64,000 nucleotides of DNA from an uncultured Planctomycetota bacterium. GTDB taxonomy: Bacteria; Planctomycetota; Planctomycetia; Isosphaerales; Isosphaeraceae. The stretch spans positions 576,001-640,000 of the forward strand of contig CAWGMQ010000004.1 of NCBI GenBank assembly GCA_963823665.1. Reading direction: 5' to 3'. Below are positions 12,211 through 16,790 of this stretch, piece after piece (position 1 is the stretch's first letter; each line of letters begins with the position of its first letter). The translations under genes and the position numbers were made by a program. The notes under the pieces are model-generated. The model saw only the letters and a list, made by a program, of their open reading frames with translations. It made no database searches and was not told where the DNA came from.

Positions 12211-13124
12211 ATGACGACGGCGATCCAGAAGGACATGGTTTCTTCGCGGGTTCTTGATCGGCTGCGGCGGGGCCAGCTCACGCAACAGCAGGTGGAGGGC
12301 TTCCGCGATTTCCTGGAACAGGTCGACCGCGAGCTGCTTCACCACCGCATCATCACGGACAATGCATACACGCGATGGTTCCAGGCCGGGTTGGCGAGCG
12401 ATCAGGAGTTGGTGCATTTTATACGCCAATTCTCGGTGTTCTCGAATCAGTTTCTGGTGGCTGCGCTTTTGCGTGTGATCAACGCCCCGACCCTTCAACA
12501 GGCGCGGTCGGCCAAAGAGATTCTTTTGAACGAGCTCGGCGTGATCTACCGGCGCACGAGCGGCGATGCAACTGCGACGGGCGCGGTGGATGAAGACGCG
12601 AAGGACCGCGAGGGCGATCCGGAGCTGGTGAGCACCGAGGGAACGGTCGATGGTGGTATTTTCCGTTTCAAGGCGGCGCATTTCGAGTGGCTGCTGGCGG
12701 TGGGGGAGGCACTTGGGCTCGGGCTTTCACAACCTGGGCAAGCGGAAGCAGGGTACGGCGTCGACACTTCATTTCTGCGACGAGCTGATCCGGCTGTTCG
12801 GGAATGAAGACGACCGCATCGCGGAAGGGGCGAGCTTCGCGGTCGAGAACTGGGCGGCGGCGGGTTTCTGGCAAGAGCTGGAAGACGGGCTGCTTGCACA
12901 TCAAGGCAACCCGAATGCCAAATCTGAGGGTTGCTTTCTTCACATGGCATAATCGCGTGGAGGCCCAGCACGCCGGGCACACGATGGAAGAGCTCGAGGA
13001 GGTGTTTTTCTCGCCGAAATTCGATCAGGCGCGGTTCTTCCAGGGCGCGAACGAAGTGCTCGACGCCATCGCGGTCTTCTGGAACGGCTTGGAGGACGAC
13101 CGGATTCGGTGCGTGGTGAACTGA
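12211..13124 (+). CDS. Heme-oxygenase-like diiron oxidase (CADD/PqqC/TenA superfamily); frameshifts near 12722 and 12893
   Basis: Joining three frames gives FIRQFSVFSNQF...ILLNELG...AAHFEWL...SFAVENW...FFTWHNRVEAQH, the E..H..E..Hx3Ex2H ligand pattern. Confidence 0.75.
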
Positions 13125-13138
13125 GAGGCCAAGCTCGC

Positions 13139-14245
13139 ATGACGACCGACGACATCGCGCTCAAGCGCATTGACCACGTGCGGATGTTCGTGGGCAATGC
13201 GCGCCAGTCTGCTTATTTTTATCGTAACGCCTTTGGTTTTCAGGTCGTCGCATACGCCGGGCTGGAAACGGGCGTGCGGGGTGAAGCATCGTACGTGCTG
13301 CGCCAGGGGCAGATCACCTTTGTGCTTTCGTCTCCGCTCTCCGGGAAACATCCTGACGCTCAGCGGCTGGTCGTGCACGGTGACGGCGTGCAGTCGATCG
13401 CGCTCGAGGTCGGCAACGTGACGGCGGCGTATCGAGTGCGCCGTGGCCCGAGGGGCACGGCCGGCCAAGGCGCCCCAGGCGATTGAAGATGAATTCGGCG
13501 TGTACGAGATTGCCGAGATCGAAGCGTACGGAGACACGACACATGCCTTTGTGGACCGGTCGCGGTACGAGGGAGTCTTCGCGCCGGGCTTCCAGCCGAT
13601 GGATGCCGACCGATACAGTCCGGACTCGTTCCATCCTGTGGGGCTCAAGGCCATCGACCACATCGTCGCCAACGTCGAGGAAGGAAAGATGGGCGACTGG
13701 GTGGACTATTACAAGAGGATCATGGGGTTCTCGGTGCTTGCGAGCTTCGACGACAAAGACATTAGCACGGACTACTCGGCGCTCATGTCGAAGGTCGTGG
13801 CTGACGGGCGGGGACGGATCAAGTTTCCGATCAACGAGCCTGCCAAGAGCCGGCGCCGGTCCCAGATCGACGAGTTCCTGGAGTTCTACGGCGGTCCGGG
13901 AGTGCAGCACATTGCGATGGCGACGGGAGACATCATCGGCAGCGTGTGCGCGATGATCAAGAACGACGTCTCGTTTCTCAAAGTCCCGCCTGCCTATTAC
14001 GAGCTGCTGCCCGATCGGGTGGGCACATTGAAAGAAGACCTGCACGAGCTTGAGGAGCTGGGCATTCTGGTTGATCGCGATGACGAGGGTTACCTGCTGC
14101 AGATCTTCACCAAGCCGGTCGAAGACCGACCGACCCTCTTCTTCGAGATCATTCAGCGCAGGGGGCGCGCAGCTTCGGCAAGGGGAATTTCAAGGCCCTA
14201 TTCGAGGCCATCGAGCGCGAACAGGCCCGGAGGGGAACGCTGTAG
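13139..14245 (+). CDS. hppD: 4-hydroxyphenylpyruvate dioxygenase; frameshifts near 13435 and 14160
   Basis: [63 protein letters not shown]; shifted frame gives [23 protein letters not shown]. Confidence 0.96.
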
Positions 14246-14265
14246 GACATGAGTTGAGGCGCTCG

Positions 14266-14979
14266 ATGAAGACACCCTTACCTGAAGTTGCCAGCATTCG
14301 TGACTTCTACGCTTTCGAGCAGCATGTGATGACATGCCGGCGCCATCGCGGGCTGGCGATGGCCGAAGCATGGTATCAAGTGCCGGTGTTTTATTTCTCG
14401 AACCCCGCGAGCGTCCGGCATCAGGACCAAGACGTGTGGGCGCCCCGCGGTTGTGCCCAACTCGATTACGAGCTTGAACTTGCCTGTGTGATCGGCCGGA
14501 GGGCGCGTGATCTGCCAGCGGACGACCAGGCGCTCGAGTCGGTGGCGGGATTCACGATCATGAACGACTGGAGTGCGCGAGACCTGCAACAGCTTGAAAT
14601 GTCGGTGGGCCTGGGGCCGAGCAAGGGCAAAGATTTTGCCACGTCACTGGGCCCTCAAGTTGTGAGCATGGACGAGCTGGCCGACTGCTACCGAGACGGC
14701 CGGCTGCACCTGGAAATGGCAGCTTCTGTAAGCGGTCGATTGTTATCTCGTGGAAACTCTGGTTCGATGTACTGGACGTGGCCGCAACTGCTTGCACACG
14801 CCAGCCGAGATGCAGACTTGCGTCCGGGTGACGTGATCGGCTCGGGAACCGTCGGCTCGGGCTGCATTCTCGAGCTGACGCCGGAAGCTGCCGGCGGCTG
14901 GCTCAAACCGGGCGACACAGTCGAGCTGTCGATTGAGCGGTTGGGGACTTTGCGCAACCGCGTTGTATCGCATCCTTGA
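14266..14979 (+). CDS. Fumarylacetoacetate hydrolase family protein
   Basis: SIRDFYAFEQH, LDYELELACVIG, MNDWSARDLQ, KGKDFATSLGP, GDVIGSGTVG. Confidence 0.93.
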   Translation: MKTPLPEVASIRDFYAFEQHVMTCRRHRGLAMAEAWYQVPVFYFSNPASVRHQDQDVWAPRGCAQLDYELELACVIGRRARDLPADDQALESVAGFTIMNDWSARDLQQLEMSVGLGPSKGKDFATSLGPQVVSMDELADCYRDGRLHLEMAASVSGRLLSRGNSGSMYWTWPQLLAHASRDADLRPGDVIGSGTVGSGCILELTPEAAGGWLKPGDTVELSIERLGTLRNRVVSHP

Positions 14980-15005
14980 AGAGACGGTGTCTCGGAGCGT
15001 CGTCC

Positions 15006-16176
15006 ATGCCTCAGTATCATGCGACTCGGCGCGATACCTCCCAAGCGCCACATCACCCACCCGCATATTCCGGGCTTCAAGAACGAGGGGATTTACTATG
15101 AGGAGGTGGTCACGACAGCCGGTTTTTCGCGAACCTACAGCGTGGTCTATCATCTTCGTCCGCCGACGAGAGTGACGGGGCTCGAGCCGGCCGGTACGAT
15201 TCCCTCGGATTTCGGCGAACAGCCCACGCTCAGGCACCACCACATCAAGACGGCGGGGCTGCCGCGCTCGGGTGATCCGATCGGCGGCCGGGTGCTGCTT
15301 TTCGGCAACGACGACGTCACGATCGCGCGCTGTCGGCCCGATGCGCCCCAGGAAGAGTTGTTCCGCAACGCCGACGCCGACGAAGTCGTGTTCGTGCATC
15401 GCGGGCGAGGGATTCTGCACACCATGTTCGGCCCACTTGGGTTTCGCGAATTCGATTACGTGGTCATTCCGCGGTGCACCACCTACCGGTTCGAGTTCGA
15501 GGCGGGCTGCGGGCCCGACTTGCTCGTGATCGAGTCGACGGGCAGCCTCACGATCCCTGCGAGGTATATGAATGCCGACGGTCAGTTGAAAATGGGTGCT
15601 CCCTACAGCGAGCGCGATCTTCACGGCCCGAGCGAGATCGGCGTGGTCGATCGCGACGAGGAGACCTCGGTGCTCGTCAAGGACGGCCGCCGGCTGACTC
15701 GCTACAACCTGGCGAACCACCCGTTCGACGTCGTCGGGTGGGATGGATTCGTTTATCCTTACACGTTCAACGCCGACGACTTCGAGCCGCTCACGGGCAG
15801 GGTGCACCTGCCGCCGCCGGTGCACCAGACGTTCGATGCGCCGGGCTTTGTGGTGTGCACGTTCGCACCCCGGATGCTCGACACCGACCCACGGGCAGTC
15901 AAGGTGCCGTTTGCTCATTCGAACGTACAAGCCGACGAGGTTCTGTACTACGTGCGCGGGCGGTTCAGTAGCCGCAAGGGAGTCGAGGAATCATCGTTTA
16001 CACTGCACCCGCGCGGCATTCCGCACGGCCCGCATCCCGGTACCTTCATGGCTAGCCGGGATGCCCGCTCGACCGATGAGCTGGCGGTGATGGTCGACAC
16101 GGTGCGGCCATTGCAACTGAGCCGCCAGGCGATGCTGCTTGATGACCCCGCCTATCCCTTGAGCTGGATTGACTGA
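15006..16176 (+). CDS. hmgA: Homogentisate 1,2-dioxygenase (true start probably ATG 15006 with an indel near 15018)
   Basis: LGAIPPKRH, RNADADE, HPFDVVGWDG, GRVHLPPPVHQTF, HSNVQADEVLYY, TLHPRGIPHGPHPG. Confidence 0.95.
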
Positions 16177-16184
16177 GGCTTGGC

Positions 16185-16790
16185 ATGATCATTGATGTAA
16201 GAGCGGCGGACGTTGTCACGGTATACCGCGCTCTGGTGGGACTGGTTGTTCCACGGCCGATCGCATGGGTGACGACGGTCGACTCGGCGGGAAGGGTCAA
16301 TCTGGCGCCGTTCAGCTTCTTCAACGCCTTCGGCGCCAATCCGCCGATTGTGGTTTTCTCGCCGACACTCCGGCGGGACGGCTCCAAGAAGGACACGCTG
16401 CTCAACGTGGAAGCTGTCGGTGAGTTTGTGGTGAATGCCGCGGTCGAAGAGCTTGCCGAGAAGATGAATTCCACGTCGGCGGAGCTTCCTCGCGGCCAGA
16501 GTGAAGCCATCCGTGCCGGTTTAACGCTGGCGCCCTCGGCCAGGGTTCGCCCGCCTCGCGTGGCCGAGTCGCCCGTTCACCTGGAATGTCTCGTCAGGGG
16601 AATCATGTCGATGGGAGACGGCCCGATCGCCGCGAATCTGGTGATCGGCGAGGTCGTCTTGATCCACATCGAAGAGCGCGTGCTGGACTCCGCCGGGCAG
16701 GTTGACCCGCGCAAGCTACGGGCCATCGCCCGCCTGGGCGCCAACGATTATTGCCGGACGGGCGATCTCTTTCAGATGGAACGGCCGTGA
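16185..16790 (+). CDS. Flavin reductase family protein (DIM6/NTAB)
   Basis: VVPRPIAWVTT, NLAPFSFFN, KDTLLN, ESPVHLEC, ARLGANDY. Confidence 0.93.
   Translation: MIIDVRAADVVTVYRALVGLVVPRPIAWVTTVDSAGRVNLAPFSFFNAFGANPPIVVFSPTLRRDGSKKDTLLNVEAVGEFVVNAAVEELAEKMNSTSAELPRGQSEAIRAGLTLAPSARVRPPRVAESPVHLECLVRGIMSMGDGPIAANLVIGEVVLIHIEERVLDSAGQVDPRKLRAIARLGANDYCRTGDLFQMERP

Follow-up and report, generated by a model that had tools for sequence, protein, structure and literature searches.

Organization of the operon

The DNA analyzed here, referred to as the window, is a stretch of 64,000 nucleotides from an uncultured planctomycete of the Isosphaeraceae (assembly GCA_963823665.1, contig CAWGMQ010000004.1, positions 576,001 to 640,000), and it carries an operon for the breakdown of tyrosine and phenylalanine through homogentisate. 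Our subject is the first gene of this operon, at window 12211-13124, which is predicted to encode a heme-oxygenase-like dimetal oxidase (HDO) and which may stand in for the phenylalanine hydroxylase gene phhA. This gene and its homologs are called the HDO gene throughout. The features of the operon are as follows.

12129 to 12158, plus strand: sigma-70-like promoter, TCGACC-18-TATAAT, with TATAAT at 12153-12158
12197 to 12202, plus strand: Shine-Dalgarno-like AGGGGG ahead of the start codon of the HDO gene, read from the sequence and conserved in related upstream regions
12211 to 13124, plus strand: gene for a putative diiron oxygenase with the HDO fold, about 303 amino acids (aa), in three frames with +1 insertions at about 12720 and about 12895
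Predicted ligand codons of the HDO gene: E108 at 12532, H157 at 12679, E212 at 12845, H246 at 12948, E250 at 12960, H253 at 12969
13139 to 14245, plus strand: hppD, 4-hydroxyphenylpyruvate dioxygenase (TIGR01263, E 5e-88 and 2e-19 on two pieces), with frameshifts near 13433 and 14160
14266 to 14979, plus strand: fumarylacetoacetate hydrolase (FAA hydrolase) family gene, fah (PF01557, E 6e-56)
15006 to 16176, plus strand: homogentisate 1,2-dioxygenase-like gene, hmgA (PF20510 above cut-off; TIGR01015 E 4e-10, under cut-off), with an inferred start at 15006 and a +1 insertion near 15019
16185 to 16790, plus strand: flavin-reductase-like gene, a general member of such operons (PF01613, E 3e-21)

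It was noted that the HDO gene pieces 12211-12720, 12722-12895 and 12897-13121 align end to end and without gaps to intact homologs of 303-306 aa in related genomes. The genome of a sister species (G001) is one base shorter at each of two points, about 12720 and about 12895, and contigs from public runs of related organisms likewise lack the extra bases. An earlier sequence-only reading of this DNA had reconstructed a protein of about 300 aa across two indels; its motifs NELG, AAHFEW, AVENW and WHNRVEAQH were all located in the window protein, and both indels proved to be single bases. With the last base of the stop codon at 13124 and the ATG of hppD at 13139, the 14-bp spacing previously described is reproduced. 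Also as described, the operon contains none of phhA, an aminotransferase or the maleylacetoacetate isomerase gene maiA. The phhA family PF00351 was not found across the whole window genome, which is 92% complete, and PF03301 (tryptophan dioxygenase, TDO) had no match there.

Linkage to homogentisate catabolism

We assessed the genomic neighborhood of the HDO gene in a scan of species genomes (527 loci found, with counts made on the closest 80) and in a metagenome scan that included more distant members (373 loci, with counts made on 80 that were kept, 38 of them at least 7 kb long). Among 61 related genomes, 15 possessed the HDO gene, and it stood directly before hppD in 14. Within 6 kb of the 80 genome loci, hppD was present at 77, hmgA at 70, fah at 44, an acyl-CoA synthetase gene at 35 and a flavin reductase gene at 16, which bears out the linkage that had been proposed as a check. 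A pathway gene was present at 50 of the 80 metagenome loci and at 33 of the 38 long ones, with hppD, hmgA, fah and a maiA-like glutathione S-transferase (GST) gene at 34-38 of the 80 each. No phhA was found near the HDO gene at any of the 80 genome or 80 metagenome loci.

Three gene orders were encountered. Planctomycetes carry the HDO gene at the head of hppD-fah-hmgA, and cyanobacteria carry it after hppD-hmgA and before the acyl-CoA synthetase gene, together with a divergent Lrp regulator. The third order, hppD-hmgA-fah-maiA followed by the HDO gene, was found at proteobacterial-type metagenome loci with more distant members. Because these last clusters encode every step from 4-hydroxyphenylpyruvate onward, and in some cases Trp dioxygenases or an amino-acid dehydrogenase as well, the hydroxylation of phenylalanine is left as the gap. 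Among 171 genomes of one cyanobacterial order (a taxonomic order), the HDO gene occurred in 11, always beside hmgA, which itself occurred in 12; phhA was found in one other genome. Even members at about 30% identity stood beside hppD or hmgA at some loci (L160, L175). Three loci titled 'Alcaligenaceae' were rejected as Betaproteobacteria, since they showed planctomycete-like identity and, where the flank was long enough, the planctomycete gene order.

Other functions tied to these neighborhoods were considered and set aside. The HDO protein as a substitute for maleylacetoacetate isomerase was rejected because the maiA-like GST was present at 38 of the 80 metagenome loci. A substitute for TDO is unlikely, as TDO or IDO co-occur with the HDO gene (7/80 and 4/80 metagenome loci, respectively; TDO/IDO at 7/80 genome loci). 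A source of tyrosine for cells lacking prephenate dehydrogenase was also rejected, PF02153 being present in all five genomes checked.

Exchange with phhA

The family of the window itself possessed phhA in none of 36 genomes, and mutual exclusion was therefore examined in a sister family of the same class (f5), which by gene order is probably the Gemmataceae. Across its 151 genomes, the HDO gene was found in 19 (16 close and 3 divergent), phhA in 83 and hppD in 103. Among the 103 genomes with hppD, 78 carried phhA only, 19 carried the HDO gene only and 6 carried neither; none carried both, compared to 14.4 expected. None of the 48 genomes without hppD contained the HDO gene, and five of them had phhA. 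The exclusion gave a Fisher exact p of 7e-16, a value that is overstated, as related genomes are not independent.

The two genes were found to occupy the same position. Of the 83 phhA loci in this family, 52 were surveyed for their surroundings, as were 16 of its 19 HDO loci, many contigs ending early. The gene adjoined hppD at 37/52 phhA loci and 14/16 HDO loci, and the full slot, flanked by a divergent zinc-type oxidoreductase gene and by hppD, was present at 24/52 and 8/16, respectively. One genus contained both forms in this slot, the HDO gene in G407 and phhA in G449, G469 and G491. The anti-correlation with phhA anticipated by the sequence-only reading was complete in this family and took the form of an exchange within one slot.

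Quick trees were then made for both flanking proteins, HppD and the oxidoreductase. Genomes with the HDO gene and genomes with phhA paired as sisters in these trees, including G407 with G449 (support 95-96 in both), G430 with G358 (95 in HppD, and 98 together with a third sequence in the oxidoreductase tree) and G427 with G365 (98). The oxidoreductase tree required 8 changes, about as many as shuffled labels gave (mean 8.1), and at least 4 switches are made necessary by starred branches. This pairing implies that the middle gene changed repeatedly while the flanks were inherited together. The switching reflects either displacement in situ or the loss of one or the other gene by descendants of an ancestor that had both, and either route indicates that the HDO gene and phhA are functionally redundant.

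Fold, ligands and extent of the family

Structural work was performed on an intact homolog (L003), whose AlphaFold2 model had a pLDDT of 91.8. The top Foldseek match of the model was CADD (E 1e-4), and a wide structural search returned BesC and HrmI (Z 20.8), FlcD and CADD (19.9) and UndA (18.1), with TenA/PqqC chains at lower values (Z 14-17.5). The sequence itself had no match among PDB sequences in a single-sequence search, only a weak one to PF14518 in Pfam (E 0.003) and no family match in NCBIfam. Intact homologs did not match PF00351. A profile of 38 rows recovered BesC together with a 4-aminobenzoate synthase and a protein resembling CADD, at E 4e-4 to 1e-3; in the alignment, H157, E212 and the HxxxExxH motif match BesC and 4-aminobenzoate synthase residues, and E108 was placed by its motif and helix position. 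Among family members, 5/38 matched PF03070 and 18/38 matched PF14518.

Conservation of the ligands was assessed in 161 unique homologs drawn from 175 loci; E108 and E212 lay partly within the search patterns and the other ligands did not. E108, H157, H246, E250 and H253 were retained in 161/161 homologs and E212 in 160/161, and H256 and E260 were also invariant. In a set of 38 members chosen for diversity, all six ligands were present in 30. Retention of the full set favors a metal site; TenA and PqqC are metal-free members of the fold. Both the CADD-like HDO fold and the E/H/E/Hx3(D/E)x2H ligand set proposed earlier are supported, the fold matching CADD and UndA, and the window gene is taken to belong to a real HDO subfamily with a predicted set of three His and three Glu. 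HDOs are defined by a set of three His and three carboxylates (PMC13108848).

The family is large, with 4466 matches among 8000 candidates scored and 504 clusters at 50% identity. Its members were annotated at source as hypothetical proteins, with the exception of one PqqC label, and the source names of homologs of the window gene were Isosphaeraceae. An insertion of about 40 residues between E108 and H157 is shorter in distant members. Weak phylum-level matches (E about 1e-4) were shorter CADD-like paralogs without this insertion and were left uncounted. Separately, short CADD-like HDO genes were found as tandem pairs in other planctomycete genomes, in a context unrelated to hppD (L021, L022, L025, L028, L029). 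Some distant members with the fold signature have lost ligands (P0139, P0144, P0148, P0164, P0184, P0227, P0231) and may be paralogs without activity or forms with a regulatory role.

Proposed reaction and electron supply

We favor, with moderate confidence, the reading that the HDO protein takes the place of PhhA, to which it is not homologous, and para-hydroxylates L-phenylalanine to L-tyrosine. The tyrosine would feed the route of the operon through 4-hydroxyphenylpyruvate and homogentisate to fumarate and acetoacetate, following the pathway steps given in PMC9338888. Two Fe(II) would be held by E108, H157, E212, H246, E250 and H253 and would convert O2 to a peroxo-diferric species, by analogy with the O2 activation of other HDOs (PMC13108848, in part). 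By the same analogy, the substrate would be seated in a conserved, aromatic-rich pocket, with one oxygen atom entering the ring at the para position. The diferric center would then be re-reduced with two outside electrons, drawn from a general donor of the cell and not from a dedicated neighbor. Two homologs, P0128 and P0196, are fused to an N-terminal cytochrome b5 domain, and such fusions suggest an external one-electron donor. P0128 also has full ligand motifs and a hydrophobic N-terminus and is possibly eukaryotic.

The sequence-only reading had named the flavin reductase at the operon end as the possible reductant. This gene was rejected as a dedicated partner, being found at only 16/80 genome loci and 0/80 metagenome loci, and it is not specific to the HDO gene, as it also ends operons led by phhA (L045, L156, L166) and operons with neither gene (L035-L038). 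Taken as a whole, that reading is supported in its fold, ligands, hppD/hmgA linkage and anti-correlation with phhA, and is not supported in its reductant; its model of CADD acting on tyrosine is considered below. Its proposal of a pterin-independent enzyme is less secure, as pterin dehydratase (PF01329) was present in 3/3 HDO-bearing genomes checked and a pterin may take part.

Several observations weigh against the proposed function. The exclusion rests on one family, with phhA absent or nearly so in the other groups searched (0/36, 1/171) and kin being non-independent, and the slot exchange does not separate phenylalanine from phenylpyruvate as the substrate. Eight of the 38 diverse members lack the full ligand set. 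Copies were found away from hppD in G052, L062 and 5/38 long metagenome loci, and a plasmid copy in Gloeothece adjoins a 2OG-Fe dioxygenase gene, apart from hppD. No dedicated reductase was found to travel with the HDO gene among the 80 genome and 80 metagenome loci. The parts of the 2026 review PMC13108848 that were consulted do not list arene hydroxylation among HDO reactions, and the word 'aromatic' occurs there 0 times. For the window copy itself, no near-identical contig or read set of its organism covers the two indels.

Alternative functions

An unlikely alternative is that the HDO protein para-hydroxylates phenylpyruvate, or another acid derived from phenylalanine, to 4-hydroxyphenylpyruvate, bypassing PhhA and tyrosine. 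This would explain the exclusion of phhA and the slot before hppD equally well, and a Glu/Leu/Phe/Val dehydrogenase, encoded near 7/80 metagenome loci, could supply the keto acid. It is weakened by the fact that phenylpyruvate can be diverted by HppD itself. Characterized HDOs also mostly use amino or fatty acids (PMC13108848).

It is quite unlikely that the family is real and the copy in the window genome is a pseudogene. The two frameshifts within the gene, in a region that near-identical contigs leave uncovered, would fit such a loss. However, single-base insertions of like kind also break hppD (about 13433 and 14160) and the start of hmgA (about 15019) relative to G001, and a 173-nt contig with 0 mismatches across 14893-15066 differs from the window by one gap. 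Residues 1-170 of the window protein are, moreover, 93% identical to the intact G001 copy. Judged from the sequence, the indels are probably assembly errors and the copy is intact in the organism.

An amino-acid oxidase or C-C-cleaving enzyme acting on tyrosine or phenylalanine, in the manner of AetD, SktA or BesC, was judged a slim prospect; it could, for example, replace the aminotransferase by oxidative deamination of tyrosine to 4-hydroxyphenylpyruvate. The operon does lack an aminotransferase gene, BesC and HrmI are among the nearest folds, and Trp derivatives are the substrates of AetD and SktA (PMC11869266). This function would leave the exclusion of phhA without a reason, though, and phhA operons of the same slot lack an aminotransferase gene as well, while some HDO loci carry an aminotransferase or dehydrogenase gene (7/80 genome, 7/80 metagenome). 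Very improbable is a non-catalytic accessory of the Fe(II) enzymes HppD and HmgA, serving in iron storage or delivery or in oxidant scavenging. The lability of HDO clusters (PMC13108848, in part) and the loss of ligands in distant members would suit such a role, but it explains neither the 0/19 co-occurrence with phhA nor the same-slot exchange, and hppD-hmgA operons without the HDO gene occur in 5 genomes.

A CADD-like, self-sacrificing 4-aminobenzoate (pABA) synthase that cuts tyrosine from its own backbone is scarcely credible, even with CADD as the top Foldseek match and Y53 aligned with the HPFY tyrosine of 4-aminobenzoate synthase: the Y53 position is Phe in 4/161 close homologs and in 8/30 ligand-complete diverse members (one of them in an hppD operon), canonical pabB was above cut-off in 5/5 genomes checked, the neighbors are catabolic rather than folate genes, and NCBIfam gave no CADD-family match at E<=10. 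The earlier analogy to CADD as an enzyme acting on tyrosine is a poor model here, since CADD acts on protein-bound tyrosine, with Tyr27 as the sacrificial residue (PMC11965152, in part), and the equivalent Y53 is not invariant.

Promoter, leader and neighboring genes

A promoter scan gave 4 promoter-like sites compared to 0.9 expected. The TATAAT box of the earlier reading is confirmed at 12153-12158, and a -10-like hexamer was present at the equivalent place in 12/12 aligned related upstream regions, three of which are near-identical repeats. The leader at window 12165-12210 is conserved in related planctomycete loci and contains a C-run, TCCCCC, about 25 nt before AGGGGG, with which it could pair. 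The folding energy of a leader hairpin over the ribosome site was not better than that of shuffled sequences (z 0.93).

Upstream, window 10120-12053 encodes a GT2 glycosyltransferase and a methyltransferase, the operon's own promoter lying between these and the HDO gene. Immediately after the operon, window 16883-19501 encodes a glutaminase-A-like six-hairpin protein (DUF4964, DUF5127, GtaA). The flavin-reductase-like gene (16185-16790) is the last gene of planctomycete hppD-fah-hmgA operons in which maiA is missing. It was not present at any of the examined loci with maiA, and may itself replace the isomerase step. A protein of about 280 aa without a Pfam match was noted in 32/80 loci (such as L099:1919-2788, minus strand, and L160:4904-5716, plus strand) and lies beside fah in cyanobacterial clusters lacking maiA; it could supply a further step that is absent, maleylacetoacetate isomerization for example. 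Two further genes, L175:696-1469 and L176:148-924, had no Pfam match at E<=0.001 and show HppD-like motifs by eye; they lie in convergent orientation to divergent HDO members, and the genomes concerned are small and low in GC.

Comparison with known systems and significance

The family shares with BesC (7TWA), HrmI (9N1A), FlcD (8W1Q), CADD (8VA9/1RCW) and UndA (6P5Q) a seven-helix fold (Z 18-21, rmsd 2.5-3.4 A) and the order of ligands, E..H / E / HxxxExxH. It differs in its low identity of 10-18%, under every Pfam and NCBIfam cut-off, and in the insertion between the first Glu and His. It occurs in primary catabolic operons instead of natural-product or folate clusters, and the arene hydroxylation proposed for it is outside the reactions given in the parts of PMC13108848 noted above.

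The HDO protein has no sequence or fold relation to PhhA (PF00351), and its gene occupies the same slot directly upstream of hppD with a complementary distribution; the same reaction is proposed for both. PhhA is a mononuclear iron enzyme that depends on tetrahydropterin, and the conversion of phenylalanine to tyrosine is the textbook reaction of pterin-dependent enzymes. The ferritin-like diiron arene monooxygenases, including toluene and phenol hydroxylases and PaaA, provide a diiron precedent for hydroxylation of an aromatic ring. They have a different fold, matching the model only weakly as helical bundles (Z about 9), and consist of several components, including a dedicated reductase and an effector, neither of which is encoded at the window locus.

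No literature on this HDO family, or on a pterin-independent diiron phenylalanine hydroxylase, was found in a search that took in neither most subscription journals nor supplements; HDO similarity networks in the latter might include this cluster. The subfamily is uncharacterized, and the genomic evidence for a new reaction is unusually specific. Whether it amounts to a second class of phenylalanine 4-hydroxylase, widespread and so far unannotated, we regard as evenly balanced. Such an enzyme would be a single-chain, pterin-free diiron HDO that took over the place of PhhA in situ more than once and that functions in phenylalanine catabolism in planctomycetes, cyanobacteria and clusters of proteobacterial type. 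Cultured sources of the family include Singulisphaera, Chlorogloeopsis fritschii PCC 6912, Fischerella and Alkalimarinus coralli (WP_250655680.1). If the proposal is true, the HDO superfamily would have its first arene-hydroxylating member and its first representative in a textbook catabolic pathway. HDO chemistry would gain ring hydroxylation, with a possible biocatalytic hydroxylase that needs no pterin recycling, and a pathway hole would be closed in thousands of sequence clusters that at present carry the label 'hypothetical protein'.

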